Assembly: GCA_036769985.1 (NCBI GenBank)
Contig: DAIPKA010000033.1
Coordinates: forward strand, 8,900 to 72,899
Origin: Candidatus Hydrogenedentota bacterium
GTDB taxonomy: Bacteria > Hydrogenedentota > Hydrogenedentia > Hydrogenedentales > SLHB01
DNA length: 64,000 nt
Reading direction: 5' to 3'
The position numbers and the translations under genes were made by a program. This document shows, in pieces, positions 5,199 through 21,384 of the stretch. How positions within the stretch are numbered: the stretch's first letter is position 1; each line of letters opens with the position of its first letter. The notes below the pieces were generated by a model. It had not been told where the DNA came from. It searched no databases and saw nothing but the letters and a program-made list of their open reading frames with translations.

Positions 5199-5350
5199 CT
5201 AGACTGAGAAGGGTATAGGAGCAGAAAGGCTGATGACGCGCTCGGCGTCCGTCCCCGTCGAGTCAAGGCAGTGCAGCGGAATGCGCGTTCGGGCGCCGCT
5301 GTTCCGGCGTGGTGGGACATGTCGAGGAGAGAGTTGGCGCAGCGAATACC

Positions 5351-7324
<1,974 letters not shown>

Positions 7325-7328
7325 GTTC

Positions 7329-8162
7329 ATGGCGGCCCCCGCGCTAGTCCGAGCGGCCGATCGGACGCTGATCATGGGCGTGATCAATCCCACTCCGGAC
7401 TCGTTTTATGATGGCGGTCGGATCCAAACCGTCGAGGAGGCATTCCAGTATGCCCGCGAGGCCGTGGCCCATGGGGCCGATATCCTGGATATCGGGGGCG
7501 AGTCTTCGCGACCGGGGGCCGATCCGGTCTCGGCGGACGAGGAACAGCGGCGGGTCCTTCCGGTGATCGAGCACGTGGCGGCGTTGGGCGTTCCGGTATC
7601 GGTGGACACGTATCGCGCCGATACGGCGCGCGAGGCCTTGCGTTGCGGGGCGACCGTTGTCAACGACATTACGGCGTTGCGCGGCGACCCGGAAATGGCC
7701 GCCGTTCTGGCGGAATCGGAATGCGCCTGTGTCCTTATGCATATGCGCGGAACGCCGAAGACCATGCAGCAAGCGCCGCACTACGCCGACGTGGTCGATG
7801 ACATCGCCGCCTTCTTTGATGAACGCCTGAGCTTCGCCGTGCGTGCCGGTATCGCCGAAGAGCGCGTGTGGCTGGATCCGGGCTTCGGTTTCGGCAAGCG
7901 TGTGGAGCACAATCTGGAAATCTTACGGCGACTGGACGTCTTCCAGCGGTTCGGACGTCCCGTGCTCGTCGGCACATCGAACAAGTCGACCATCGGGGCG
8001 GTGCTGGATCTGCCGGTGGATGAGCGTTTGGAAGGGACGGCGGCCACCGTCGCCGTAGCTATCATGCGAGGCGCCGATGCCGTGCGCGTGCACCAGGTGA
8101 AAGCGATGGCGCGAGTCGCACGAATGACCGACGCCATCATGGGGAAGCGCAGCTATGCCTAG
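7329..8162 (+). CDS. folP: Dihydropteroate synthase
   Basis: Pterin-binding domain motifs are present (IMGVINPTPDSFYDGG, DIGGESSRPGA). Position follows the conserved ftsH-folP-glmM synteny. Confidence 0.9.
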   Translation: MAAPALVRAADRTLIMGVINPTPDSFYDGGRIQTVEEAFQYAREAVAHGADILDIGGESSRPGADPVSADEEQRRVLPVIEHVAALGVPVSVDTYRADTAREALRCGATVVNDITALRGDPEMAAVLAESECACVLMHMRGTPKTMQQAPHYADVVDDIAAFFDERLSFAVRAGIAEERVWLDPGFGFGKRVEHNLEILRRLDVFQRFGRPVLVGTSNKSTIGAVLDLPVDERLEGTAATVAVAIMRGADAVRVHQVKAMARVARMTDAIMGKRSYA

Positions 8163-9504
8163 ACAGCAACGACTCTTTGGAACGGATGGAATCCGCGGTC
8201 AGGCGAACACCTATCCGATGACGACGGAAATGGCGTTGCGCGTAGGCCGCGCCGCGGGCTATGTGTTTCGCAAGGAAGACCGACCTCACTCGATTCTCAT
8301 CGGAAAAGATACCCGGCAATCGGGCTACTTGATTGAGTATGCCCTAACGGCAGGCATCTGCTCGGTGGGCGTGAACGTGTTGCTCGTCGGCCCGCTTCCG
8401 ACGCCGGGCGTCTCCTACATCATGCGCAGTCTGCGGGCCGACGCCGCGATCATGATCTCGGCGTCTCACAACATGTTTGAGGATAACGGCATCAAGCTGT
8501 TCGCCCGCGACGGATTCAAGATTCCCGATGAAGTGGAGGACGAAATCGAGCGCCTCATCAACTCGAGCGAGATCGACGGCGTTCGTCCGACCGGCGAACA
8601 CGTCGGGATCGCCCGCCGCATCGATGACGCGGTCGGTCGCTACATCGAGTTTGCGAAGGCCTCGTTCCCCAAGGGCATGCGGCTGGATGGACTGCGGATC
8701 GTCTGCGATTGCGCGAACGGGGCGGCGTACAAGGTGGGTCCCTTCACGCTGCGGGAACTCGGGGCCGATGTGATTCCTATCGCCGACCGCCCCGACGGGC
8801 GCAACATCAACGCGGGCTGCGGCTCCGTTCATCCCGAGGAGATGCGTGCCCGCGTGATCCGTGAGCGGGCCGACTTGGGCGTGGCGTTTGACGGCGACGG
8901 CGACCGGATCGCCATGGCGGATGAGGAGGGCCGCCTGCTGGACGGGAACGCCCTGCTGACCATTCTGGGCGTCGATATGCTGGACCGCGGAGACCTTCCC
9001 GAGAAGACGCTTGCGACTACCGTCATGGCGAACGGCGGCCTCGAACGCGCCATCGAGGCCCATGGCGGTCAAGTCCTGCGGACGTCCGTGGGCGACCGGT
9101 ACGTGGTCGAGGCCATGCGCGAGCACGGACTCCTGCTCGGCGGTGAGTCATCGGGGCATATTGTGATGCTCGAACACAACACGACCGGCGACGCGTTGAT
9201 CACGGCGCTTCACGTGCTGGCCACCATGATCCGGAACAACCAGCCGTTGTCTGTTCTAGCCCATGAGTATCAGCCCATGCCCGAGGCGCATACGTCGGTG
9301 CCGGTGCAGCACGGCAAACGCCCGTCTGAAGAACAGATCAATACGATTACGCGCGAGGCGGAGGCTCTGCTGAAGGGATCGGGGCGTGTCGTGATCCGGC
9401 CCTCCGGCACCGAGCCCATCATCCGCGTTATGGTTCAGCACGGGGCGGTCCGCGAGGCCGAACGTCTGGCCAAGAAGCTTGCGGAGCAGATCGCCGCGCT
9501 ATAG
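8155..9504 (+). CDS. glmM: Phosphoglucosamine mutase
   Basis: N-terminal LFGTDGIRG motif. The active-site Ser loop ISASHNMFEDNGIK and the C-terminal phosphate-binding loop (RPSGTEP) are present. It overlaps the folP stop by 8 nt. Confidence 0.9.
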   Translation: MPRQQRLFGTDGIRGQANTYPMTTEMALRVGRAAGYVFRKEDRPHSILIGKDTRQSGYLIEYALTAGICSVGVNVLLVGPLPTPGVSYIMRSLRADAAIMISASHNMFEDNGIKLFARDGFKIPDEVEDEIERLINSSEIDGVRPTGEHVGIARRIDDAVGRYIEFAKASFPKGMRLDGLRIVCDCANGAAYKVGPFTLRELGADVIPIADRPDGRNINAGCGSVHPEEMRARVIRERADLGVAFDGDGDRIAMADEEGRLLDGNALLTILGVDMLDRGDLPEKTLATTVMANGGLERAIEAHGGQVLRTSVGDRYVVEAMREHGLLLGGESSGHIVMLEHNTTGDALITALHVLATMIRNNQPLSVLAHEYQPMPEAHTSVPVQHGKRPSEEQINTITREAEALLKGSGRVVIRPSGTEPIIRVMVQHGAVREAERLAKKLAEQIAAL

Positions 9505-9526: not shown

Positions 9527-10282
9527 CTACTTCTCGGACGTGAAATCCAAGGTGTTGAGAAAATCGTTGAGTGCGCTCTGTTCCTTCTTCGAGATATCGA
9601 CGAATTGCACGCCGCACGCAAAGGCGCCCTTCTCGGGGATTGCCTTTACCCATCGCACGGCGCCGTTGGCGCGAACCATGGCCTTGTTCGGCAGGGCGAT
9701 CTCGAGTCGGAGGTGCTGCGATGTCTCGAGGGGCTGCCGGGTGGCCAACGCGGCACCCCCGTGACTCAGATCCATCAGGCGCCCTTTCACCTCAAACTCA
9801 TCCACCGCCCAATCGTTCGAGTAGCCGGCCGAGGATCCGATCACGAGCTTGATCACCACGCGGCAGTTGTGACGGATCAGATGCCGGCGCTCGCGTTTGA
9901 CCTGACTGCTGTCCGAGGTCTTCAGGCGTTCGATGAGGGCTTGTTGCTCGCGGAGGCGCTGCAACAACTCCTTGTCGGCTTGACGCCGAACCGTTTTTCG
10001 TCGTTCTATCAATGGGCCACCTCGTGTCGAGCGGTAGGCGTTTCCGCGCGCCACTCGCTGTGGGAACGAACGCTTGTCTTCCCGACGCCGCGCTTCTCTG
10101 GCGGCCGAACCGGGCTTGCCGTAGCGCACCCATTCTGCCCGAAGCGCTCGCGATATTGCAATCATCTCTCGATAGGGGCTCTCCATCGGCGCGGCCCTGT
10201 GGGTGCTGCCGACAACCCGCGAGAAGGCGTGGCCGTTCTTCGGCGCCGGATACTCGTCAAAATGGACAAATAATTGACACAA
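9527..10282 (-). CDS. PilZ-domain c-di-GMP receptor protein (start uncertain: TTG at 10282 or ATG at 10186)
   Basis: C-terminal PilZ signature RRxxxR (RERRHLIRHN) and D-x-S-x-GG (MDLSHGGAA). Transcribed divergently from the pilus ATPase cluster. Confidence 0.6.
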   Translation of the reverse strand: MCQLFVHFDEYPAPKNGHAFSRVVGSTHRAAPMESPYREMIAISRALRAEWVRYGKPGSAAREARRREDKRSFPQRVARGNAYRSTRGGPLIERRKTVRRQADKELLQRLREQQALIERLKTSDSSQVKRERRHLIRHNCRVVIKLVIGSSAGYSNDWAVDEFEVKGRLMDLSHGGAALATRQPLETSQHLRLEIALPNKAMVRANGAVRWVKAIPEKGAFACGVQFVDISKKEQSALNDFLNTLDFTSEK

Positions 10283-10305
10283 AAGGATTTATGGAGCGTA
10301 TTCAC

Positions 10306-10335
10306 TTGACGGAGAGTTCGCCCTGGTGATAGAAT
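10306..10335 (+). promoter_or_regulatory. Sigma-70-like promoter candidate (TTGACG, 18-nt spacer, TAGAAT) for the MshEN-DnaA fusion / pilB / pilT operon
   Basis: Good -35/-10 hexamers in the divergent intergenic region, about 130 nt upstream of ATG 10463. Confidence 0.4.
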
Positions 10336-10462
10336 CGACACTGGTGTATGCTACACTGGCATCGTCGTTTCGTCGGCGCAGGATGACAGGCGCGAGGGTC
10401 CCCGGCTCCGGGGACACGGGCGAAGGCGGCGGCCATGACGTAGGCCAGGAACGAAGAGAAGC

Positions 10463-12337
10463 ATGCTGGGTTATCACCGATACAAAAAACAGAGTGGCGA
10501 GACGGAACCGGCCGCGAGTGATGCCTCCGCGAACGCCGCGATGACGCCCACTCCGCATGCCCAGGTGCAAGGCCTCGGTGAGGCCCTGGTGGCCCACGGA
10601 GTCATCTCGCAGGCACAGCTCGACCAAGCGTTGGCGATCCAACAGAAGCAGGGCGGCTTCGTGGGCCAGATCCTGGTCGACCTTGACCATGTTAAGCAGG
10701 ACGCGATTGTTTCGTTTCTCGTCAAGGAGTGCAAGATCCCGCATCTGAGTCTGCTCGACTACGATGTGAGCGACGACCTCATGCACCTGATTCCGATGGA
10801 GTTCTGTCTCGAGCACCACCTGCTTCCCATTGACAAGCTGGGCAAGATTCTGACCGTGGCCATGGTGGACCCCTTGGATTCGGCCACGCTGGACCAGGTT
10901 CGGGAGTTGTGTCCGGACCTGCGCATCAAGCCCATTCTGTGCAACTGGCGGCACTTCGAGACGGTGGCCCACAAGTTGTTCGGCGTGCAGGCCGGGGTTT
11001 CGAACGAAGTCACGGCGGACAGCCTTGGCCTGCCGAAGCTCCGCACTGCCCCGAAGGCGCCGTCTCCTTCCGAAAGCCCGGAGGGCGCGGAGGAAGCGGC
11101 ACCGGAAGCACTCGAGGAGGTGGTTGCCAATCTGGCTGCGGGTGCGGCGGAGACCGCAGCGGCCGCGGCGGGTCCCGAGGTGCCCCCACAGCCCCGTGGA
11201 CACGTCGCGGTGCCCGGTGACGCAACCGGGCCGGAGACAAGCGCCGCGCCGGTGGAAGAGGCCCCGTCGGCGGCGATCAGGGAGCCCGAGGCGCCTCCGC
11301 CGCGGCGGCACGAAGGCGGCGAGGGCCGTGGCGTCGAGGATGCGGCGGCTGCGCCGCTGGTCGCGGCGGTGCGTGAAGCCGTGCGCGAGGCGTCCGAGAA
11401 CCTGCTTCGGGCGGTGCCGTCGCTCCATCTCGCGCAGGCCGAGTCGGCGGCGGTGCGTGAGGCCGCCATGCGCGATCTCGTCGAGGCGGGTGAGAAACGC
11501 CAACGGGTTCAGCACGCATCGGTGCGGCCGTTCCGCCCCGATAGGGGCGCGCTGGGCCCGGAGATGCAGGAGGATGATCGGCACGTGATGGACGCCATGG
11601 CGTCTGAGACGCCGCTGGCGGGATTCACCTTCGAGACGTTCTACGCCGGAAAGGTCAACGAGTTTACATACAAGCTGGGACAGGCCGTGTCTGCCAATCC
11701 GGGCGGCGAATACAATCCTTTCTTTCTCTACGGCAATGTCGGGCTCGGGAAGACTCACCTCATCAACGCCATAGGGAACGCGATTTGTGAGTCGTCGCAC
11801 AACCGGCGCGTAGGTTACGTGTCGGCCAGTCACTTCGCGCGCAGACTGGCGGAGGCGCTCCAAGGGCATGCGCTCGAGATGTTCCGTCAGAACTACTGCC
11901 ATTGGGACGTTCTGATTCTGGACGACATTCAGTTCATGGGCGGGCGCATCGAGGCGCAGGAGGAGTTCTTTCACATCTTCAACGTGTTGCACCAGGAGGG
12001 ACGCCAGATTATCATTGCCGGAGACAAGGCGCCGGAGAAGCTGGGTCTGCTGGAACAGCGGCTCGTATCGCGTTTCGCCGGCGGCATTGTGGCGGAACTC
12101 AGGCCGCCCGAAATGGCCACGCGCCTGGCCATCCTGCGGCACTTGCTGAACGAGGCGAAGGCGGATATTCCGGAGGAGATCATTTCCGTCATTGCCATGC
12201 GCGTTCCGAACGACATGCGCATGATGGTCGGGGCGTTGCGGAAGATCATCGCCTTCGACAAGCTGATCGATCAGAAAATCACGTACGAGATGGCCAACGA
12301 GATTCTGAGCCATCTCGGTGTGGTCGAAGCGGCATAG
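10463..12337 (+). CDS. Fusion protein: GspE/MshE-type N-terminal (MshEN-like, candidate c-di-GMP-binding) domain, a low-complexity Ala/Pro/Glu linker, and a DnaA-type AAA+ domain III. There is no DnaA domain I and no DNA-binding domain IV.
   Basis: aa 37-160 are a T2SS/T4P-ATPase N-terminal domain, including a 24-residue MshEN-like motif (LGEALVAHGVISQAQLDQALAIQQ). aa about 385-624 align motif-for-motif with E. coli DnaA domain III:
- TFETFYAGKVNEFTYKLG vs TFDNFVVGKSNQLAYAAA
- Walker A: GNVGLGKTHLINAIGN
- Walker B: LILDDIQF
- sensor I: IIAGDK
- box VII with both Arg: EQRLVSRFAGG
- box VIII: NDMRMMVGAL
The frame is continuous with no stop, and the ORF ends right after domain III. Confidence 0.8.
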   Translation: MLGYHRYKKQSGETEPAASDASANAAMTPTPHAQVQGLGEALVAHGVISQAQLDQALAIQQKQGGFVGQILVDLDHVKQDAIVSFLVKECKIPHLSLLDYDVSDDLMHLIPMEFCLEHHLLPIDKLGKILTVAMVDPLDSATLDQVRELCPDLRIKPILCNWRHFETVAHKLFGVQAGVSNEVTADSLGLPKLRTAPKAPSPSESPEGAEEAAPEALEEVVANLAAGAAETAAAAAGPEVPPQPRGHVAVPGDATGPETSAAPVEEAPSAAIREPEAPPPRRHEGGEGRGVEDAAAAPLVAAVREAVREASENLLRAVPSLHLAQAESAAVREAAMRDLVEAGEKRQRVQHASVRPFRPDRGALGPEMQEDDRHVMDAMASETPLAGFTFETFYAGKVNEFTYKLGQAVSANPGGEYNPFFLYGNVGLGKTHLINAIGNAICESSHNRRVGYVSASHFARRLAEALQGHALEMFRQNYCHWDVLILDDIQFMGGRIEAQEEFFHIFNVLHQEGRQIIIAGDKAPEKLGLLEQRLVSRFAGGIVAELRPPEMATRLAILRHLLNEAKADIPEEIISVIAMRVPNDMRMMVGALRKIIAFDKLIDQKITYEMANEILSHLGVVEAA

Positions 12338-12356
12338 CCGCATAGGAGGAAGCGTT

Positions 12357-14087
12357 ATGCCTCCACGAGCAACCCGGCGCCGGTTGCCGGATATGCTTCT
12401 CGAGCAGGGACTCGTCACTGAGCGAGAACTCGAGGAGTGCATGGCAATCCATCGTGCCACCGGACAAGGTTTGGCCGACATCCTCGTCGAGAGAAACTAC
12501 CTTTCGGAAGAGGATCTCGTGGTCACGCTCAGCGAACAACTCGGCATTCCGCACATGCGCGTCGGCCACTACAACGTTCCCAAAAGCATCCTGGACGAGA
12601 TTCCCGAGACGCTCGCGCGCCAGTACATGATGCTACCGGTCTCGTTGACCGGCGACGTATTGACGATTGCCATGGCCGACCCGCTCAATATCATGGCTCT
12701 CGACGATCTCCAGATGCTGACAAGCTACGAGATTGAGCGCGTCGTCGCCATCCGCTCGGAACTGGCCGCCGCCATCGACAAGAACTATGGCGGCGGCAAG
12801 GCGGATGAAATGCTGGACGAGTTGCTCGGCAAGCAGGACGCCGAGCAGGCGAAGATCCAGGAAGTCGAATCCAAGGGAGAGGAGATCGAGGACGTCAGCG
12901 CCCTCGAGGCCGGGTCGGAGGACGAGCCCGTCAAGAAACTCGTCCGGCTGGTCGTCTTCAACGCCTTGGAGGTGGGGGCCAGCGACATCCACCTCGAGCC
13001 CTTCGAGAAGGAAATGCGGCTACGCTACCGGATCGACGGTTCGCTCGAAGAGGCCAAAGGTCCACCGAAGTCTCTACAGACCAAGATCATCGCGCGGCTG
13101 AAAATCCTGGCCGGCTGCAAGATCGACGAGAGCCGGCTGCCACAAGACGGCCGGTTCCGCATGCGATACAAGGGCAACGATATCGATTTTCGTGTTGGTT
13201 TCCTGCCATGTCGGTACGGCGAGAAGGTGGTGCTTCGCGTGCTCGACAAGAGCAGTCTCACGCTCGACCTTGACAAGATGGGGTTCGAAGACCAGCCGAT
13301 GGATGCCTTTCGGGAGGCGCTCGATCGCCCCAACGGCATGGTGTTGATGACCGGACCGACCGGGAGCGGCAAGACGACGACCCTCTACAGCGCCCTGTTC
13401 AAGCTGAACAAGGTGGACGTCAACATCGTGACCGTCGAGGATCCCATCGAGTACGAGCTCTACGGGATCAACCAGGTCCAGGTGCACGCCCGCATCGGCC
13501 TCACCTTCGCCGACGCGTTGCGCCAGATCTTGCGACAAGACCCGGACATTGTGATGCTGGGCGAGATCCGTGACAGCGAGACGGCCGACGTCGCCGTCAA
13601 GGCAGCGCTCACCGGACACCTCGTGCTCAGCACGCTCCACACCAACGATGCCGCCGGCGTGTTTCCCCGTCTGATCGATATGGGCGTGGAACCATTCCTG
13701 GTCCAATCGTCCGTCGTCTTAGCTGCGGCGCAGCGTCTGCTCAAACGCATCTGTGCCAGCTGCAAGGAGCCCATCCGTGTTCCGGCGGATGCGCTCGAAC
13801 GGATCCAGTTCAGGCCGGACCCGGGATCTCCGCCAGCCGAATTTGCTCGGGGACGAGGTTGCGCCAAGTGCAAGAATAGTGGCTACAAGGGCCGGCTGGC
13901 GACCATCGAGGCCATGCCGTGTTATCCGGAAGTGCAAGACCTCATCATGCAACAGGGATCCGGCAACATTATCAAGCGAACGGCCATGGCCTGCGGCATG
14001 CGGTCGCTCCGCCAGAACGCCTTGTCGAAGGCAGCCCGCGGCTTGACGACCATCGACCAAGTGCTTGAGCATACGATCGCAGACTGA
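12357..14087 (+). CDS. pilB: Type IV pilus assembly / type II secretion ATPase (PilB/GspE family)
   Basis: It has a GspE_N domain and Walker A (GPTGSGKTTT). The Asp box, Walker B and His box (LSTLHTND) are present, as is a tetracysteine Zn motif (CASCKEP..CAKCKNSG). A strong AGGAGG RBS precedes the start. Confidence 0.85.
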   Translation: MPPRATRRRLPDMLLEQGLVTERELEECMAIHRATGQGLADILVERNYLSEEDLVVTLSEQLGIPHMRVGHYNVPKSILDEIPETLARQYMMLPVSLTGDVLTIAMADPLNIMALDDLQMLTSYEIERVVAIRSELAAAIDKNYGGGKADEMLDELLGKQDAEQAKIQEVESKGEEIEDVSALEAGSEDEPVKKLVRLVVFNALEVGASDIHLEPFEKEMRLRYRIDGSLEEAKGPPKSLQTKIIARLKILAGCKIDESRLPQDGRFRMRYKGNDIDFRVGFLPCRYGEKVVLRVLDKSSLTLDLDKMGFEDQPMDAFREALDRPNGMVLMTGPTGSGKTTTLYSALFKLNKVDVNIVTVEDPIEYELYGINQVQVHARIGLTFADALRQILRQDPDIVMLGEIRDSETADVAVKAALTGHLVLSTLHTNDAAGVFPRLIDMGVEPFLVQSSVVLAAAQRLLKRICASCKEPIRVPADALERIQFRPDPGSPPAEFARGRGCAKCKNSGYKGRLATIEAMPCYPEVQDLIMQQGSGNIIKRTAMACGMRSLRQNALSKAARGLTTIDQVLEHTIAD

Positions 14088-14139
14088 AGAACGTTCGGGG
14101 ACTTCGCTGAGGAACTACTCACGGGAGGACGACGACACT

Positions 14140-15213
14140 ATGGTGCCAAGTTGCAAGGAACTCCTGACCAAGATGATCAAGGAGGGCGCCAGTGATATGC
14201 ACATTGTCGTCGGCGCGCCGCCGACGATTCGAGTCCACGGTAGTCTCGAGCCGCTGCCCGGCTACGACCCGTTGACGCCTGATGACACCCAAGAGATCAT
14301 TTACACCGTGATGACGGAAGAGCAGATCGCGGAGTTCGAGTCCGAGTTCGAGTGCGATCTCTCGTTCGGCATCGAGGGTCTCAGCCGATTCCGGCTCAAT
14401 GTCTTTCGCGACCGAGGCAGCACCGTCGCGGCGTTCCGCGCGATCCCCTTCGAGATCCTCTCGTTCCAGGACCTAGGCTTGCCTCAGGTGGTCTCGGACT
14501 TTGCCTACCGCCCGACGGGTCTCGTGCTGGTCTGCGGCGCCACGGGCAGCGGCAAGTCCACGACGTTGGCCGCCATCATCGGCAAGATCAACGCGGAGCG
14601 CGCCGTACACATCATCACCGTCGAGGACCCCATCGAGTTCCTCCACTCGCACAACCGATCCATTATCAACCAGCGCGAGGTCAATGCCGACACCAAGAGT
14701 TTCGGTGCGGCGCTCAAGCGGGTGTTGCGCCAGGATCCCGATGTGATTCTGATTGGCGAGATGCGCGACCCGGAGACAATTCAGGCTGCGTTGACGGTGG
14801 CCGAGACCGGCCACTTGGCCTTCGCCACGCTGCATACCAATGATGCCCTTCAGACCATCAACCGTATCGTGGACGTGTTCCCGTCCACCCAACAGGAGCA
14901 GATTCGGACCCAGCTTTCCTTCGTGCTCGAGGGCGTGGTGGTGCAGCAGTTATTGCCTCGCGCGGATGGTCTTGGGCGCGTGCTCGGACTCGAGATCATG
15001 GTGCCGAATCCGGCCATCCGCTCTTTGATCCGCAGTGAGAAGCTCGAGCAAATCCCATCGATGATCGAGATCGGTACGAGCGAGGGCATGATCACGATGA
15101 ATCAGTCGCTGTTTCGTCTCGCTCGCCGGGGGCTCATCACGACGGAAGTGGCCATGACGCGGAGCCCCAACCAGGAAGGCCTTGAACGGCTCATGGAAAA
15201 GGGACGTGAGTAA
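14140..15213 (+). CDS. pilT: Twitching motility (pilus retraction) ATPase PilT
   Basis: Walker A GATGSGKSTT. PilT-specific AIRNLIRE-like motif (AIRSLIRSEK). His box ATLHTND. About 357 aa. GGGAGG RBS. Confidence 0.9.
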   Translation: MVPSCKELLTKMIKEGASDMHIVVGAPPTIRVHGSLEPLPGYDPLTPDDTQEIIYTVMTEEQIAEFESEFECDLSFGIEGLSRFRLNVFRDRGSTVAAFRAIPFEILSFQDLGLPQVVSDFAYRPTGLVLVCGATGSGKSTTLAAIIGKINAERAVHIITVEDPIEFLHSHNRSIINQREVNADTKSFGAALKRVLRQDPDVILIGEMRDPETIQAALTVAETGHLAFATLHTNDALQTINRIVDVFPSTQQEQIRTQLSFVLEGVVVQQLLPRADGLGRVLGLEIMVPNPAIRSLIRSEKLEQIPSMIEIGTSEGMITMNQSLFRLARRGLITTEVAMTRSPNQEGLERLMEKGRE

Positions 15214-16837
15214 GACGAGCCTGGATCACAGGCGACCCGTTTCGGAGAGTCACGGCGGTGTGCCGTGGATCATCGGCATCACGCGCGTGGCGGTGCTGAT
15301 TGTTGCGGCCTTCGGCCTCTACTGGTTTGGTGAGCTCTTCATCAGCCGGGGCGGCGTCTATCGCCTCGCGGTCCCGCGCTACATCGTCATCTTTCTGGTG
15401 ACGCTCTACGCCTTCAATCTGATCACCGGTGTGGTCTACCTCGGCGTGCTGCACCGCCATCGGGCCGCCACGGCCATCATGACCTGGACACAGGTCCTCC
15501 TCGATTTCAGCGTGGTGGTGAGCACGATCAGTGTCACGGGCGATAGCAACAGCGTGTTCACGGTGCTGTTGGTCATTGTCATTCTCGAGGCCGGGCTGTT
15601 GTTGGGACTGCCGCAAGGTTTTCTGTTTGCCATGCTGAGCATCGTATACGTGGCTGTTCAGGCATGGCCCAGCGATAGGGCCCAGGTGCCTCCTGAGCTC
15701 TGGTACGATATCCTTATTCAGAGCCTTGCCTTTCTCTTCACCGCCTTCATCAGCGGCTACTGGAACAACCTGATCTTCCGGCTGCGCTCGTTTCAGCGCG
15801 AGATCCTGGACAACCTGAGCAGCGGGTTTCTGATCACGGATCGCACGGGCGTCATTTCGGCTCAAAACCGCGCGGCCGATGAGATGCTGGGCCTGCCGGA
15901 CGGAAGCGCGCTGGGCCGTTCCGCTATCGAGATCCTCAGGCCGGAGTCCGGCGGCGAGTGTCCCATTATGACGGCGCTCCGGTCGGAGCGCGATTTCACG
16001 TCGTTCGAGTTCCACGCGGTGACTCATTCGGGGGGCTCCAAGCTGCTCGGACTCAGCACAAATCGCATCTACGACAAGCGCCACCGGCTCACGGGTTTGA
16101 TTGCGTCGTTCGCCGATATGACGGAAGTCGACACGATGCGTCAGGAGCTGCACCGGCAGGATCGCCTGGCCGCCTTGGGCGAGTTGGCCACCGACGTCGC
16201 GCACGAGATACGCAACCCGGTCGCCGTCATCCGTAGCGCGGTGGAAGAGTTGCAGAACAGTATCGAGTCGCCGGAGAAGGTCCGGAAGTTGGCGGCGCTG
16301 GCTCTGCGGGAATCGGATCATCTCAATCGGATCGTCCGCAGTTTCCTTGACTTCACGCGCAATCCCGTCCGCAAGCATGACGTGTTCGACGTGTGTGCCT
16401 TGTTGCGGGAGGTGGCCGATTCCCTACGGCATCAGTACGCCGACGCGTCGGCGCTCTCCGTCGAGCTCCGGAACGATGATCTCTCGTTTTCGGTTGCCGG
16501 TGACGCGTCGCAGATTCGGCAGGTGTTCATGAATCTGGGCACGAACGCGGTGGAAGCCATGGATAGGCGTGGCCTGCTGGCGATTATCGTCGCGCCTGCG
16601 GGACGATCGATCGAGATTCATTTCGACGACGAAGGCAGCGGCCTCGCGCCGGATCAGGTTGCGCGCATGTTCGAGCCTTTCTATACTACGAAGCAGTCGG
16701 GCGTAGGCATGGGCCTGGCCATCTGCATGCGGATTGTCACGGCCCACGACGGCACGCTGCGCGCCGTGCCGCGGGAGCAGGGGGGGACGCGGATGACGGT
16801 GCGATTGCCGGCTGCCCGCAACCCGCAGACGGAGTAA
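15182..16837 (+). CDS. Sensor histidine kinase, PilS-like (multi-TM N-terminus, PAS, HisKA, HATPase_c); start approximate
   Basis: Six predicted TM helices, a PAS-like segment, an H-box (ATDVAHEIRNPV), and N/G1/G2 boxes (NLGTNAVEA, DDEGSGL, GVGMGLAI). Confidence 0.8.
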   Translation: MNGSWKRDVSKTSLDHRRPVSESHGGVPWIIGITRVAVLIVAAFGLYWFGELFISRGGVYRLAVPRYIVIFLVTLYAFNLITGVVYLGVLHRHRAATAIMTWTQVLLDFSVVVSTISVTGDSNSVFTVLLVIVILEAGLLLGLPQGFLFAMLSIVYVAVQAWPSDRAQVPPELWYDILIQSLAFLFTAFISGYWNNLIFRLRSFQREILDNLSSGFLITDRTGVISAQNRAADEMLGLPDGSALGRSAIEILRPESGGECPIMTALRSERDFTSFEFHAVTHSGGSKLLGLSTNRIYDKRHRLTGLIASFADMTEVDTMRQELHRQDRLAALGELATDVAHEIRNPVAVIRSAVEELQNSIESPEKVRKLAALALRESDHLNRIVRSFLDFTRNPVRKHDVFDVCALLREVADSLRHQYADASALSVELRNDDLSFSVAGDASQIRQVFMNLGTNAVEAMDRRGLLAIIVAPAGRSIEIHFDDEGSGLAPDQVARMFEPFYTTKQSGVGMGLAICMRIVTAHDGTLRAVPREQGGTRMTVRLPAARNPQTE

Positions 16838-16843
16838 ACCTCG

Positions 16844-18250
16844 ATGATCGCTAAGCAACGGGTGTTGGTTGTCGACGACGAAATCAACATGCGCGAACTG
16901 CTCGAGATCATTCTCGATACGGACGGATACGAAGTGGTGTCAGTTCCCGACGTGCCGTCGGCTATTGAGGCGTGCAACGCTACGGTGTTCGACGCGGTCC
17001 TCACCGATCTCCGCATCGGTAACGAGAAAGAAGCCGGCATGGAACTCCTGACGTGGCTCAGCGAGAATGCGCCGACTACACCGGCCATTATGATGACGGC
17101 CCACGGATCCGTCGAGACGGCCATCGAAGCCATGAAGCGCGGGGCCGACGACTACGTTATGAAACCGTTCAAAAACGACGAAATCCGGCTGCTGATTCGC
17201 CGCTCGATCCAGCAACGCAATATCCTTCGAGAGAATGTCGCGCTCCGTCGTGACCAGGTGGCTCGGGGGAAGATCACCAACATCATCGGCAACAGCCACG
17301 CTATCGAGGAAGTCAAGACCATGATCCGGCGCGTGGCTATGCTTCCCAGCACCATCGCGATCCACGGGGAAAGCGGCGTCGGAAAGGAAGTCGTGGCCCG
17401 CGCCATCCACACGCTCAGTGCCCGGGCGGACAAGCCCTTTGTCGCCATCAACTGCGGCGGGATCCCCGAGCACCTCCTCGAGAGCGAATTATTCGGCCAC
17501 AAGCGCGGATCGTTCACCGGCGCCGTAGACGACAAGGAAGGTCTGTTCGTGGTGGCGCACGGAGGGTCCTTGTTTCTCGACGAGATCGGCGAGATGCCCC
17601 TCAGTCTCCAAGTCCGTCTCCTGCGCGTCCTCGACAACAACAGCGTGATGCCCGTGGGCGGAACGTCCCAGATCAAGGTCGATGTACGCATCGTTTCGGC
17701 CACGAACCGCGACCTCGAGAAGATGGTGGCCGACGGCACGTTCCGCAAGGATTTGTTTTATCGCCTGAACGTGATTCCGGTGTATGTGCCGCCGCTCCGC
17801 GACCGGGCGGATGACATTCCGCTGCTGGCGCGGCATTTCATCGAAAAGCACGCCTCGAAGATGGGAAGGCAGCGCCTAGGCATCTCGAAGGCCGCAATGG
17901 CGGCCCTGCAGCGCTTCGCCTGGCCCGGCAATGTTCGTGAGCTCGAGAACGTCATGGAGCGCGCGGTGGCCCTGTGCTCGAGTGAGGAGATCAACGTGGA
18001 CGATCTACCTCAAAACGTGCGCAATTTCATGGCCGAGCCGGCAGAGTGCATGGTCGAGCTTCCCCCCGGGGGCCTCGATCTCGAGGCCCGCATGGACAAG
18101 ATTGAGTCGGCCATGATTGGCCAAGCACTCGAGCGCTCCAAGCACTCGCAGAAGCGTGCGGCCCAACTCCTCGGTCTTACGCCGCGCTCATTGCGGTACC
18201 GCCTCAAGAAGCACGGGCTCGAAACCGACGCTTCCGACGAAGACGAGTAG
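16844..18250 (+). CDS. Sigma-54-dependent response regulator (NtrC/PilR family)
   Basis: REC domain with DD..D..K. AAA+ sigma-54 activator domain (GESGVGKE, GSFTGA variant of GAFTGA, ESELFGH). C-terminal Fis-type HTH. Confidence 0.85.
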   Translation: MIAKQRVLVVDDEINMRELLEIILDTDGYEVVSVPDVPSAIEACNATVFDAVLTDLRIGNEKEAGMELLTWLSENAPTTPAIMMTAHGSVETAIEAMKRGADDYVMKPFKNDEIRLLIRRSIQQRNILRENVALRRDQVARGKITNIIGNSHAIEEVKTMIRRVAMLPSTIAIHGESGVGKEVVARAIHTLSARADKPFVAINCGGIPEHLLESELFGHKRGSFTGAVDDKEGLFVVAHGGSLFLDEIGEMPLSLQVRLLRVLDNNSVMPVGGTSQIKVDVRIVSATNRDLEKMVADGTFRKDLFYRLNVIPVYVPPLRDRADDIPLLARHFIEKHASKMGRQRLGISKAAMAALQRFAWPGNVRELENVMERAVALCSSEEINVDDLPQNVRNFMAEPAECMVELPPGGLDLEARMDKIESAMIGQALERSKHSQKRAAQLLGLTPRSLRYRLKKHGLETDASDEDE

Positions 18251-18258
18251 CCGGCGGT

Positions 18259-21200
18259 CTACAGGTAGCCGAGCGCCTCGAGTTGCTTGCGCGTGTCGCC
18301 CGCCGCGTCCTTGCCGAGCGCCGGCTCGGCGGCATTCTCGCGAATGTGCAGGCCCATGTCGTTGAGGAGACGATCCAACTCCTCCTCATCGTTCTTGCGC
18401 GGATTCTCTCCGCCGGCGATGTTGGTTTGCTCGCCGGGATCGGTCGCAAGATCATAGAACGCGACGGGGGCGAATCCACGCGGATTATCCTCGTTGGCGT
18501 GGACGATCTTGGCGCTCGTCGTGCGGACGGCCTGCAGATCGTTGCCCTCGAAATCCACCTCGGCGTAGACATATGCCGTATCGGCGTTGACGTCGTTACC
18601 GGAACGATCGACGAGGGGTTTACCGGGCATGGCGGCAGGCTTTTCGAGGCCGGCGTATTCAAGGAAGGTTGCCGGGATATCGATGTGCCGCGCAAAGTGC
18701 GCATTGGTCTCGCCGGCGCGGCCATTGGCCGGTAGCTTGACGATCAGTGGCACATGCATGAGCTCGTCGAATAGGGTCTGACCGTGCCACCACCCCTGGT
18801 GATCGTAGAACTCCTCGCCGTGGTCGGCCGTGAATACAATCAACGCGTCATCGTAGAGACCGCGATCGCGCAACCCCTGGAACAACTCGCCGAGATACTT
18901 GTCCATGTACTCGATGTCGTCGTTGTAAGCCTTCTTCATGGGCTCGGCCATCTTCGGGTCGGGATCGCCCATACGCGCGCGGGCGTAGCCGACGCCAGGT
19001 TTGTCGTGGTCCATGAAGGGATCGTGCGGATCCATGTAGTGCAGGAAGAGATAGAACGGCGTGCCTTCCGGTACCGCGCCGGCATCGAGCCATGCCAACG
19101 CGTCGTGGGTGACGACGTCCGCCGGCTGATAGAACTCGGTTACGTCGAGCTTGTTCGAGATCTTCGATGCAACCTTCTGTTTGCCGTGCCGAAGCACCTC
19201 GTAGAGCGAGAGTTTCGAGGCCGAGGGCGTTGCGCCGAAATAGTAGACGCTCGGCTTGAGGTCGGTGTAGTCGACGAATCCCTGGTCGAAGCTCCAAATG
19301 CTCATGATGTTCGGATTGTTCGACAGGCCCTTCGTGTAATAGCCGCCGTCGCGGAGCACCTCGGCTACGGTCTCTACCTCATCCGGCAGCGACGAGGTCT
19401 TCGTGGTGGCGGTATGCGATTCGGGATACAGTCCTGTGAAGAGGGTGGCGAAACTGGGCTTGGTCCACGTTGACTGGGCGAAGCAATCCGCGAAGAAGAG
19501 GCCGTCCTTCTTGAGCGCATCAAGGTTGGGCGTTTCGGCGGCGGCGGCGTCCGAATACATTCTCAAGTAGTCCGCCCGGAGCGCATCCGCCGCCACCAGG
19601 ATGATGTTCGGGCCGTGGACGCCGGCGGTTGGCTCGAACGGCGCCGCGGCTACCGGCGCCGGTTTCATGGCCGCACTGAGTCCGACACCGACGACGACGA
19701 GCACTCCGTACGCCACGGCGCCGGCCACGAGGCCTTTCATACGCCCGCCGCCCACGATCCAGAGGATGACGCCGACAACCAGGGCTGCCGCCAGTCCGAT
19801 GCCGAGGGCCGCGACCAGGATCTGGCCATTCTGGCTCATGGTAGGCGCGTGGCCCTCGAGCACGTCTCGTTGGAACCGGAACCGGCCTATCACGAGTACG
19901 CCTGCCGCCAACACACCGCCCAGGCTAAGCGCAAAGGTGGTGCGGCCGCTGGCGAACCGGTCCACGAGCAGGTAGAAGAATGCCAGCGCGCCGGCCACGC
20001 CGAGTCCGACCAAGGCGAACATGACCCCATAGGCCAGCGGCCCCCACCAGAACAGGCCGAGCTCCTGAAGGCCCTGTACGGTGCGGACCACCCAGCCGGC
20101 CTCGGCCAGGGCGATCACGGCGCCGCCGAGCGCGCCACCGAACAGGCCGGCCAGCACACAGCCGATCAGGCTACACCGGTACCTCTGCACGGCTTCCGGC
20201 GCCAGATGCAGGTATTCCTCAGTCTTGGCGGCGGCCGCTTCGCGGCGCGCCTGAGCCAGTTCCGCTTGGAGTTCCATCTTGCCGGGCCTCTTGCGCGCGA
20301 CATAGATGGGCAATCCGATGAGGAATGGAATGACGTCGCCTATCCACCACCCGAGGTGCGCGAAGGTGGCCGCCGCCGCCGCGCCGCTCTTAGCGCTCAA
20401 CAAGGTGACAAACACGATCTCGCGAATGCCTTCGCCCCCGATGGACGGCCCGAGCACCGTTCCGTAGATCATGAGCGGACTGGCGAACAGGATGTCGAGG
20501 AGATCGGTGTTGGTGGCGCGGATGGCCATCATGGTGCCAAAGTACATGATGCACGTGCCCACATGCACCAGAAAACCGAAGAACACCGCCAGGAGCAGAT
20601 CCCACCGGTTTCCGCTGTACGCCGTCGCGGCCGCGCCCAGCTTGAGAAGCTTATTCCGCACGAAGCCCGGTGTCGGCACCACAGACACGAGCACCTGAAT
20701 CACCCGAGGGTTCAGCAGCAGCATTAGGAACACCGCCACCATGCCGCCGAGAACCGCCAGAATGACGGCCAAGACCGGCACGTTGATGTTCAGCAAACGG
20801 AATCCGAGCGGAAACGTCAGGAAGACGAGGCCCGTCAGCGCGATGAAGCCAATGAGCTTCTCGACAGCGATCACGGTGACGCACTTGATGACCTCGCCGG
20901 TGTACCGCGAGGAATCGTAGAGTCGGTAGCCGTCCAGACCGATGGTTCCCGGCAGGAAGATGCCAATCGTGCGGCCCACGAACCAGCTCTGGACCAAGTA
21001 CCAGAACGGAATACTCAGGCCTTGCCCGTGGAGTAGAAGTCGCCACCGGAGCACTCCGCACAGCATGCCGACTAGCTTCACGACCAGCGCAAAGGTCAGC
21101 CAGAACGCGACCGCATGCGCCTGCGACTCACGAATCTCGCGCATCATGTCGGCCGGGCTGATGTCGCCAAACCGGTCGGAGGGAAGCCCGAACGTCTCCG

Positions 21201-21384
21201 GTCGGAACAACAGCAGGAAAAGACCCGCCGTCACCGCAAGTTTGATCACCCACCCAACCGACTTCTTCACAGACACAGTTTTTCCTCCGGTGCGCCGCCG
21301 CTCTATCGAATAGTCAGCATTTCCCGTTCGGGAGAGTACCATAGACTTCTCTGGCCTCACAACCTGGCGAGTGCTCGGTCCCAA
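18259..21384 (-). CDS. Polytopic membrane protein: MprF-flippase-like (UPF0104 / LPG-synthase-TM-like) domain fused to an alkaline-phosphatase-superfamily LtaS/phosphotransferase-like ('sulfatase' Pfam) domain
   Basis: About 14 predicted TM helices. The N-terminal third resembles UPF0104 flippase-like proteins. The C-terminal about 450 aa has the sulfatase-fold signature (LVAADALRADYL ... TKPSFATLFTGLYP). Thr replaces the FGly Cys/Ser and there is no Arg at +4, so it is a Thr-nucleophile LtaS/EptA-type enzyme rather than a true sulfatase. Confidence 0.7.
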   Translation of the reverse strand: MGPSTRQVVRPEKSMVLSRTGNADYSIERRRTGGKTVSVKKSVGWVIKLAVTAGLFLLLFRPETFGLPSDRFGDISPADMMREIRESQAHAVAFWLTFALVVKLVGMLCGVLRWRLLLHGQGLSIPFWYLVQSWFVGRTIGIFLPGTIGLDGYRLYDSSRYTGEVIKCVTVIAVEKLIGFIALTGLVFLTFPLGFRLLNINVPVLAVILAVLGGMVAVFLMLLLNPRVIQVLVSVVPTPGFVRNKLLKLGAAATAYSGNRWDLLLAVFFGFLVHVGTCIMYFGTMMAIRATNTDLLDILFASPLMIYGTVLGPSIGGEGIREIVFVTLLSAKSGAAAAATFAHLGWWIGDVIPFLIGLPIYVARKRPGKMELQAELAQARREAAAAKTEEYLHLAPEAVQRYRCSLIGCVLAGLFGGALGGAVIALAEAGWVVRTVQGLQELGLFWWGPLAYGVMFALVGLGVAGALAFFYLLVDRFASGRTTFALSLGGVLAAGVLVIGRFRFQRDVLEGHAPTMSQNGQILVAALGIGLAAALVVGVILWIVGGGRMKGLVAGAVAYGVLVVVGVGLSAAMKPAPVAAAPFEPTAGVHGPNIILVAADALRADYLRMYSDAAAAETPNLDALKKDGLFFADCFAQSTWTKPSFATLFTGLYPESHTATTKTSSLPDEVETVAEVLRDGGYYTKGLSNNPNIMSIWSFDQGFVDYTDLKPSVYYFGATPSASKLSLYEVLRHGKQKVASKISNKLDVTEFYQPADVVTHDALAWLDAGAVPEGTPFYLFLHYMDPHDPFMDHDKPGVGYARARMGDPDPKMAEPMKKAYNDDIEYMDKYLGELFQGLRDRGLYDDALIVFTADHGEEFYDHQGWWHGQTLFDELMHVPLIVKLPANGRAGETNAHFARHIDIPATFLEYAGLEKPAAMPGKPLVDRSGNDVNADTAYVYAEVDFEGNDLQAVRTTSAKIVHANEDNPRGFAPVAFYDLATDPGEQTNIAGGENPRKNDEEELDRLLNDMGLHIRENAAEPALGKDAAGDTRKQLEALGYL

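Follow-up and report, generated by a model that had tools for sequence, protein, structure and literature searches.

A DnaA domain III fused to an MshEN-type N-domain is encoded at the head of a conserved pilus-motor operon in Candidatus Hydrogenedentota

To our knowledge, the AAA+ module of DnaA is regarded as dedicated to origin opening, and its offshoots Hda, DnaC/DnaI, and IstB have all strongly diverged from it. The published partners of MshEN, the cyclic di-GMP (c-di-GMP) receptor domain of MshE-type ATPases, comprise REC, HD-GYP, CheA, CheX, cyclase, kinase, glycosyltransferase, and AAA_31 domains, and DnaA is not among them (MshEN paper and its supplement). For PilB, the extension ATPase of type IV pili, PilZ, FimX, FimW, CpiA, and phage peptides are reviewed as cofactors (PMC11656802). 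The gene described here lies in a 64,000-nucleotide stretch of a Candidatus Hydrogenedentota bacterium (assembly GCA_036769985.1, contig DAIPKA010000033.1, positions 8,900 to 72,899), hereafter the window, and fuses an MshEN/PilB-type N-domain through a long linker to domain III of DnaA. The fusion can be read both as an MshEN output and as an exaptation within the DnaA clade. Searches of the full-text library found no description of the MshEN-DnaA architecture, which agrees with an earlier reading of this DNA from its letters alone (the sequence-only reading) that did not recognize it from described systems. In Candidatus Hydrogenedentota the gene heads a conserved operon of the pilus motor with the order fusion-pilB-pilT-pilS-pilR, and the evidence collected below suggests that it encodes a regulator of pili or motility, not a replication protein.

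The fusion gene is complete (10463..12337, + strand) and runs from an ATG at 10463 to a TAG at 12335-12337, with zero interruptions over 624 residues. Its product consists of the N-domain (residues 37-176), the linker, and DnaA domain III (residues 388-618). Pfam assigns MshEN (PF05157) to residues 91-176 (E 1e-16, 61 bits versus a cut-off of 23.1) and Bac_DnaA (PF00308) to residues 388-544 (E 1.8e-55, 188 bits), and finds no match to DnaA_N (domain I, PF11638) or Bac_DnaA_C (domain IV, PF08299) in the protein at E <= 0.01. The NCBIfam c-di-GMP_motif model of the MshE type (NF053729) covers residues 38-86 with 50.2 bits (cut-off 38). The T2SSE ATPase domain (PF00437) is not found by Pfam in the fusion protein and is present in the next gene. 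The DnaA equivalog TIGR00362 of NCBIfam aligns residues 365-618 with positions 99-338 of its 437-position profile, a stretch that comprises domain III and the lid and nothing more, and the whole-protein score of 281.2 bits lies under the cut-off of 343.9. The other models of the clade score lower: the Hda model TIGR03420 gives 100.6 bits (cut-off 194.8 not reached), the IstB model NF038214 54.6 bits (cut-off 200), and IstB_IS21 of Pfam 33.5 bits, against 188 for Bac_DnaA.

Structure prediction draws the same picture. The AlphaFold model contains two confident domains, residues 38-175 and 385-620, with a predicted local distance difference test (pLDDT) score above 90. Foldseek ranks DnaA domain III first (E 1.6e-20, template-modeling score 0.86 to 8bv3), followed by Hda (~1e-11), the GSPII domains of MshE/PilF (~5e-8), and IstB (~1e-7). 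In alignments to solved structures, the C-terminal half matches domain III of the DnaA proteins from Bacillus subtilis, Thermotoga maritima, and Aquifex aeolicus end to end and without gaps, and the N-terminal part aligns with the N-domains of PilF, PilB, and MshE. The outline drawn by the sequence-only reading is borne out here: MshEN, linker, and DnaA domain III are joined in a single uninterrupted open reading frame (ORF), the expected profiles (PF05157 plus PF00308 without Bac_DnaA_C) are exactly those found, the AAA+ part is of the DnaA type with the competing IstB/DnaC assignment scoring worse, and DnaA domains I and IV are absent, with the stop codon placed 6 residues past the lid.

The homolog search, which covered 5.8 billion proteins, places the architecture in a whole phylum. 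More than 120 protein clusters carry PF05157 together with PF00308 (548-1042 residues, 42-71% identity), and the named ones belong to Candidatus Hydrogenedentes/Hydrogenedentota. An exhaustive HMMER search of 50%-identity representatives recovers approximately 100 clusters of the fusion architecture. In a scan of one genome per species, relatives occur in 134 genomes, the best 80 of which are nearly all Hydrogenedentota. The architecture is not rare; it is phylum-wide in Hydrogenedentota, where automatic annotation names the proteins “DnaA/Hda family protein” or “ATP-binding protein” and in some cases mistakes them for the “chromosomal replication initiator protein DnaA.” Several bins with the Hydrogenedentota-type operon are titled “uncultured Nitrospirales/Nitrospiraceae,” “Candidatus Bathyarchaeia,” or “FCB group” (L001-L003, L007, L010, L056); these labels probably reflect placeholder taxonomy or mis-binning. 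Residue conservation is given below as counts over 121 aligned family members.

The linkage to the pilus motor is invariant. In 77 of 77 informative loci, drawn from 80 species genomes, pilB lies directly 3′ of the fusion gene, so that the search for the same architecture and synteny proposed along with the sequence-only reading gave a positive answer on both counts. Next after pilB comes pilT in 56 of 67 related loci, and pilT-pilS-pilR usually follow. The placement of the gene as the first of an operon with pilB and pilT was likewise called correctly, as the order in the window and in the related loci confirms. Across loci, the two domains of the fusion each average 56% pairwise identity and PilB averages 70%. 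Between pairs of loci, the divergence of either domain correlates with PilB divergence (r 0.49 and 0.65), consistent with vertical co-inheritance.

The AAA+ module has kept the catalytic equipment of DnaA. Domain IIIa, the AAA+ core (11624..12094, + strand), is delimited by the PF00308 match of 188 bits and by alignment to canonical DnaA proteins, and domain IIIb, the lid, follows at 12095..12316 (+ strand). The core contains the Walker A motif G424-T431 (11732-11755), the initiator-specific two-helix insertion (residues 455-479, 11825-11899, aligned without gaps), the Walker B motif (residues 484-488, 11912-11926), sensor I D521, and box VII with R533 and R537 (12059-12073), while the lid contributes sensor II R586 (12218-12220). 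Walker A and B, sensor I, R533/R537, and R586 are invariant in the 121 family members; both faces of the nucleotide site, including the arginine finger R537, are thus invariant in the family. Identity of the module to each of four canonical DnaA domain IIIs is 40%, and these share 43-54% among themselves (the Escherichia coli sequence and three others taken from PDB alignments). Fifty of the 60 positions that are invariant in these four proteins are near-invariant in the family, including K430/T431, D487/D488, D521, R533, R537, and R586.

The residues for origin opening present the opposite pattern. V211, R245, and R227 (E. coli DnaA numbering) are known to be required for single-strand binding and unwinding. 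The equivalent of V211 is variable and small or polar in the family (A/S/K/G/T), that of R245 is Glu in 115 of 121 members, and that of R227 is Cys in 111 of 121; among the E. coli residues for single-stranded DNA (ssDNA) binding and unwinding, the K243 equivalent alone remains basic. Further family-specific changes hit canonical-invariant positions (V229W, R270K, D280Q/K, N332D), and the AID-1 Arg is lost. New family invariants have arisen at T402, C479-H480-W481, K522, and D584, and two family-specific arginines (460-461) have been gained in the initiator-specific helix. The C479-H480-W481 triplet (11897-11905) sits at the end of the initiator-specific insertion and does not occur in canonical DnaA.

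The N-domain opens with MshEN_N (10571..10729, + strand), which carries two 24-residue motifs of the c-di-GMP type at residues 37-60 and 66-89, separated by a 5-residue spacer. The 24-residue motif quoted in the sequence-only reading lies at residues 38-61 and is indeed MshEN-like, in register with Vibrio cholerae MshE (5HTL), where G37 corresponds to R9 and F66 to R38. According to the MshEN paper, the hydrophobic residues and G11/G40 are critical for binding, and changes of R9 and Q32 cost less than 5-fold. At each equivalent of MshE L10, G11, L25, L29, L39, G40, L54, and L58, the window protein has a compatible residue, and conservation across the family is high. The window protein retains L38, G39, L53, L57, Q60, V67, G68, I82, and L86 of the motifs and deviates from the family consensus at G37, D75, and E89, where R, G, and Q are usual; relative to MshE, the R9 equivalent is Gly, the R38 equivalent Phe, Gly10 of motif 2 Asp, and the Q61 equivalent Glu. 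In the family (n = 121), motif 1 departs little from the consensus in the literature (79 members have R, 106 L, 112 G, 117 L6, 113 L17, and 105 Q24). In motif 2, G3 is retained in 114, L6 in 114, L21 in 113, and Q24 in 104 members, but the first residue is Phe in 116, not Arg. Binding of c-di-GMP by the window protein is plausible but uncertain, because the critical positions are kept and yet G37, D75, and E89 deviate. The earlier assignment to a c-di-GMP-binding motif class fits the family, which keeps the critical residues, better than the window protein, in which the motifs are partly eroded.

The second half of the N-domain is the MshEN_C or GSPII-type α-β subdomain (residues 90-176, 10730..10990, + strand), which is supported by PF05157, a pLDDT above 90, and Foldseek matches to PilF GSPII-A and MshE. 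It is the most conserved region of the fusion protein and harbors, within 10730-10942, C90, H94, C115, C150, and C160, which are invariant in the family and lacking in PilB; of these, only C90 and C160 are shared with distant paralogs. A metal or redox site is possible at the invariant Cys/His residues, here or in the C479-H480-W481 triplet.

The N-domain is only 29% identical to that of the adjacent PilB and is therefore an old paralog; a recent duplication of the 5′ end of pilB was rejected on the same value. The PilB proteins themselves have altered motifs. In the cognate PilB N-domains of 79 loci, the motif-2 Gly position is never Gly (P/A/Q/S instead), and the motif-1 Gly position is Pro in approximately two thirds and otherwise Gly. 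In the PilB of the window (N-domain at 12357-12590), Pro takes the place of Gly11 and Ala that of Gly40. Judged by these residues, the c-di-GMP binding of Hydrogenedentota PilB itself may be lost or weakened; the “SLP” change in the PilB motif also occurs in a distant lineage.

Between the two domains lies the Ala/Glu/Pro-rich linker (residues 177-350, 10991..11512, + strand; 24% Ala, 14% Glu, 11% Pro), which is mostly predicted to be disordered and varies between 105 and 559 residues across the family. A conserved S-[LF]-G-L motif is present in the window protein as S-L-G-L (residues 187-190, 11021-11032). An amphipathic unit of ~32 residues (…ELAxxIRDSVGGAMQEALAxxxVQLRA…) occurs in one to seven copies in the linkers of 85 of the 121 members; the window linker contains a single degenerate copy at residues ~297-318. 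No Pfam family matches the unit above its cut-off, and in the AlphaFold model of a family member with two repeats they appear as isolated long helices (pLDDT 55-75), so that an identification of the repeats as a known domain was dropped. A conserved pre-AAA+ segment (residues 351-387, 11513..11623, + strand) with the family motif H-A-S-V-x-P-F leads over to domain III.

The protein ends with a six-residue tail after the lid, G-V-V-E-A-A (12317..12334, + strand). The terminal Ala-Ala (12329-12334 in the window) is present in 109 of 121 family members and absent from the distant paralogs in loci L081 and L082. It might have been a by-product of the ribosome-binding site of pilB; this was rejected, as the pair is still kept in 33 of 42 members in which pilB is at least 30 nucleotides (nt) away, and the constraint therefore acts on the protein. 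C-terminal signals of the ssrA and CtrA types are precedents for degradation by ClpXP, and by analogy the conserved Ala-Ala suggests a turnover signal of the ClpXP type.

DnaA-III proteins of other architectures occur below the core family in the exhaustive HMMER search. They include forms of 1248-1990 residues in which MshEN and DnaA-III are followed by a long spacer and a second DnaA-III, as well as tandem DnaA-III proteins without MshEN or domain IV. The locus L081 (GCA_030620115.1, JAUXFG010000024.1, 2359-13973) encodes PilD, four consecutive MshEN paralogs of which three carry DnaA-III, a TonB_C protein, PilB, PilT, PilC, and PilS. The paralogs are an MshEN-DnaA protein of 983 residues, an MshEN protein alone of 436, an almost linkerless MshEN-DnaA protein of 398, and an MshEN-DnaA-spacer-DnaA giant of 1990. 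L081 represents a more distant lineage, because its PilB is just 51% identical to that of the window. In the first DnaA module of its giant, identity to Clostridia DnaA reaches 55-60% and the residues equivalent to V211, K243, and R245 are preserved; other paralogs are degenerate. L082 (1990-12882) contains two giant forms followed by a PilT-like ATPase, and L086 a short MshEN-DnaA protein of 442 residues followed by PilB-PilT-PilS. In L085 (4068-9366), two PATAN genes flank the gene for an MshEN-DnaA protein of 495 residues, with a Roadblock/LC7 gene and an AAA_22 gene next to them. A tandem DnaA-III stands at the end of a CheY-CheA-CheW-CheC-TPR-PATAN cluster in L083 (84-10067), and another adjoins a PATAN-TPR gene on the P0197 contig (JGI 3300056388). 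Three further proteins (P0213, P0225, P0230) also depart from the usual DnaA layout: one has two tandem domain IIIs and a domain IV (673 residues), and the others, from Candidatus Auribacterota and annotated as DnaA, carry domain III at the extreme N terminus, followed by ~400 residues without a Pfam match.

The invariant pilB linkage and an N-domain of the PilB type point to a function at the motor of type IV pili or in controlling it, as does the fact that DnaA-III-only modules recur in clusters for pili, polarity, and chemosensing. The intact catalytic and arginine-finger residues, together with the loss of the origin-unwinding residues, fit an ATP-dependent oligomerization switch better than an origin opener. 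The reading we favor, with about even confidence, is that the fusion responds to c-di-GMP and acts at the pilus motor as a multivalent PilB cofactor, or as a competitor for the platform, that is switched by ATP. The N-domain, as an old paralog of the PilB N terminus, would sense c-di-GMP and/or occupy the docking place of PilB N-domains, be it on the PilM/PilC platform or on PilB. The flexible linker with its variable count of amphipathic helices would provide reach and multivalency. The DnaA-type AAA+ module would serve as an ATP-driven head-to-tail oligomerization switch, an initiator module exapted as in DnaC and IstB, and its oligomeric state would set the strength with which the fusion engages the motor. 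Through the C-terminal Ala-Ala, finally, a protease of the ClpXP type would turn the protein over. Sequence, structure prediction, and gene neighborhood are the grounds on which c-di-GMP binding, ATP-dependent self-assembly, action on PilB, and proteolysis are proposed.

Several observations weigh against this proposal. Gene neighborhood is association and not mechanism, and an initiator AAA+ of the helical-filament-forming kind would have to act on the hexameric PilB. The c-di-GMP motif of the window protein itself is off consensus at three positions. The window PilB still passes the NCBIfam c-di-GMP_motif model (47.3 bits versus a cut-off of 38), and it is therefore uncertain that sensing has been delegated to the fusion. 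Finally, the AAA+ module stays about as near to real DnaA proteins as these are to one another; because of this nearness, and of the L081 module that so closely resembles Clostridia DnaA, DnaA-like interactions with DNA or with DnaA may remain under selection.

These last points lead to a coupling with replication, which we consider unlikely. The fusion would be a domain-III-only DnaA decoy or cap that co-assembles with the chromosomal DnaA or, in the manner of Hda, places its arginine finger in DnaA-ATP, and its expression from the pilus operon, its c-di-GMP binding, and its proteolysis would tie replication initiation to surface behavior. In Caulobacter, the pilus and surface sensing reportedly feed via c-di-GMP into cell-cycle initiation. 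The module is DnaA-proper by its scores (TIGR00362 281 bits versus 100.6 for Hda and 54.6 for IstB), by its 40% identity to the four canonical proteins, by the invariance of both nucleotide-site faces, and by the distant relative close to Clostridia DnaA. The resemblance to Hda that had been read into the missing domains does not hold up, however: the TIGR03420 score stays at 100.6 bits against the cut-off of 194.8, and a regular-expression search for the beta-clamp motif QL.L.[LF] or Q[LM][SDPEN]L[FPLM] found it in 0 of 121 members, the S-[LF]-G-L motif of the linker being without the Gln. Hda identity and an Hda-type clamp motif were rejected on these two results. Moreover, the contexts found are all pilus, polarity, or chemosensory clusters, none with replication genes, and the replacements V229W, R270K, D280Q/K, and N332D together with the loss of the AID-1 Arg argue for a diverged interface. 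No coding sequence for domain I or IV was found by tblastn in the window or in 86 related loci (1.53 Mb in total, within <=10 kb of the gene in the related loci; the domain I query was negative), and the nearest canonical DnaA in the representative library is Clostridial and not visibly the phylum's own. The suggested link to replication-initiation control has thus gained nothing in its favor, with the ssDNA and unwinding residues lost and the relatives residing in pilus, PATAN, Roadblock, and chemosensory clusters. The most far-reaching version, a c-di-GMP-gated and proteolysed “half-initiator” from the pilus operon that co-assembles with or caps the chromosomal DnaA filament, is quite unlikely in our estimate. 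If true, surface behavior or pilus activity would directly set the frequency of replication initiation, through a one-protein link from second-messenger signaling to the initiator that is kept across a whole phylum.

A factor for DNA uptake is doubtful. Here, the PilB-like N-domain would tether the DnaA-type module to the base of a competence-type pilus, where it would bind incoming ssDNA in a filament that depends on ATP. In favor of this, DnaA domain III binds ssDNA in an ATP-dependent way (the fold matches include 3r8f), and natural transformation is driven by type IV pili. PilB cofactors for DNA uptake exist as well, CpiA being one (PMC11656802). The L081 giant keeps the V211, K243, and R245 equivalents, and the two arginines at 460-461 are a gain of the Hydrogenedentota family. 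In the family of the window protein, however, varying small or polar residues occupy the hydrophobic ssDNA-contact position and a conserved Glu stands in for R245, no comEA, comEC, or dprA was found in the Pfam-annotated neighborhoods, and the tandem and PATAN-linked relatives belong to signaling clusters, not uptake clusters. That the gene is an artefact or a misannotated ordinary gene is hardly credible, whether it be put down to chimeric assembly, to two genes fused by a frameshift, to a shadow ORF of high-GC DNA, or to the organism's own DnaA. The window has 63% GC and long shadow ORFs, such as an antisense ORF of 730 residues (10289-12481, - strand) that covers the entire fusion gene and was rejected as a gene, and some databases do label relatives as the replication initiator. 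But GC at third codon positions in the annotated frame is 77-83% in each of the three fusion segments, both domains are modeled with high confidence, and the unbroken architecture recurs in the clusters and species genomes counted above. A frameshift or chimeric assembly is ruled out by these comparative data, because more than 120 homologs share the uninterrupted architecture; an ordinary DnaA is contradicted by the lack of domains I and IV and by the TIGR00362 score below its cut-off.

The pilus-motor operon can be delimited in the window as follows. A σ70-like promoter, TTGACG-18 nt-TAGAAT with a TG extension (10306..10335, + strand), is predicted by consensus match only (10 of 12 positions). 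The ~120-nt leader between this predicted promoter and the start codon contains a GC-rich hairpin, GTCCCCGG-CT-CCGGGGAC, at 10398-10418 that has no Rfam match; when 10200-10520, which spans the 5′ leader and the intergenic region, was scanned against Rfam, no element came up, c-di-GMP riboswitches included. A σ54 promoter (TGGCAC-N5-TTGC) was discarded, since 55 matches face 60 expected ones and the weak site at 10357 is attributable to chance. The ribosome-binding site of pilB, AGGAGG (12344..12349, + strand), lies 7 nt before the ATG at 12357. This ATG is probably the start of pilB (12357..14087, + strand), and not the GTG at 12318 of the ORF list; the fusion-pilB gap then amounts to 19 nt instead of the overlap that the list gives. 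The retraction ATPase gene pilT (14065..15213, + strand; TIGR01420, 469.6 bits) probably starts downstream of 14065, as homology in relatives begins near residue 25-30. A PilS-like PAS histidine kinase (15182..16837, + strand) and a PilR-like σ54-dependent response regulator (16844..18250, + strand) complete the operon. A terminator scan from the fusion gene to pilR gave no convincing site; its sole match on the + strand is a weak 5-bp stem inside pilT (14383).

The neighboring genes are less constant. A divergent PilZ-domain gene (9527..10282, - strand; PF07238, E 1.7e-12) with RxxxR and DxSxxG motifs precedes the operon and probably starts at Met33 (10186). The PilZ neighbor pointed out by the sequence-only reading is thus present in the window, but it was not found upstream in the related loci. 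PilZ was rejected as a conserved partner: neither it nor GlmM, FolP, or FtsH of the window lies upstream of the fusion in the related loci, in which the upstream genes vary and the best-conserved upstream cluster occurs in just 13. A conserved ftsH-folP-glmM block stands directly upstream of the PilZ gene (5309-9504), and an FtsA-like gene at the window start (22-1242); the synteny of both is not common to related loci. Convergent with the end of the pil operon, a gene at 18259-21384 (- strand) encodes a protein of 1041 residues with a lysyl-phosphatidylglycerol-synthase-type membrane region and a sulfatase/phosphodiesterase domain.

In the fusion, a nearly canonical DnaA domain III, catalytically intact as far as its residues tell, is hard-wired to a c-di-GMP receptor domain and locked to pilB across an uncultured phylum, and giant forms of 2,000 residues with two DnaA modules as well as tandem forms stand in other pilus, polarity, and chemosensory clusters. 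Should the pilus reading be true, an initiator-type ATP switch would enter type IV pilus regulation, with a new class of PilB cofactor and a new MshEN output. Should the replication reading be true, initiation would be wired directly to pilus and second-messenger signaling. Both domains are soluble, well-understood folds, and direct in vitro tests are therefore feasible even though the organisms are uncultured.

Compared with known systems, the fusion shares with DnaA domain III (8bv3/8btg from B. subtilis, 2z4r from T. maritima, 1l8q/2hcb/3r8f from A. aeolicus) the fold, the nucleotide-site motifs, the box VII R281/R285 equivalents, and the initiator-specific insertion. Unlike DnaA, it is without domain I, a DnaA-type domain II, and the DnaA-box-binding domain IV, it has lost the V211/R245/R227 equivalents, and its AAA+ module carries an N-terminal PilB-type domain and is encoded in a pilus operon. 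With Hda/HdaA it has in common that a DnaA paralog consists of an AAA+ module without domain IV and with a conserved arginine finger. It is far closer to DnaA, however, its fold matches to Hda reaching E ~1e-11 at 21-23% identity, and it differs by an extra N-terminal region of 380 residues and by its pilus instead of replication gene context. The MshEN (GSPII) domains of MshE, PilB, and PilF are matched in the two 24-residue motifs with a 5-residue spacer and in the presence of MshEN_C, and both the Pfam and NCBIfam cut-offs are passed. The output, in contrast, is a DnaA AAA+ and not T2SSE, motif 2 opens with Phe (116 of 121) and not Arg, and MshEN_C has four invariant Cys. The proposed mode of action would be functionally analogous to that of FimX-PilZ-PilB of Xanthomonas and Pseudomonas, FimW, and CpiA, where a separate protein encoded with or near the motor conveys second-messenger input to PilB or controls the access of PilB to the machine (PMC11656802). 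There is no sequence relationship to these proteins, which use EAL/GGDEF, PilZ, or small inhibitor folds and none of which is an AAA+. DnaC, DnaI, and IstB, lastly, set the precedent for a DnaA-clade AAA+ with the initiator-specific insertion that is reused as an ATP-dependent oligomerizing adaptor; the fusion differs from them in that it still scores as DnaA and has not diverged as those families did.

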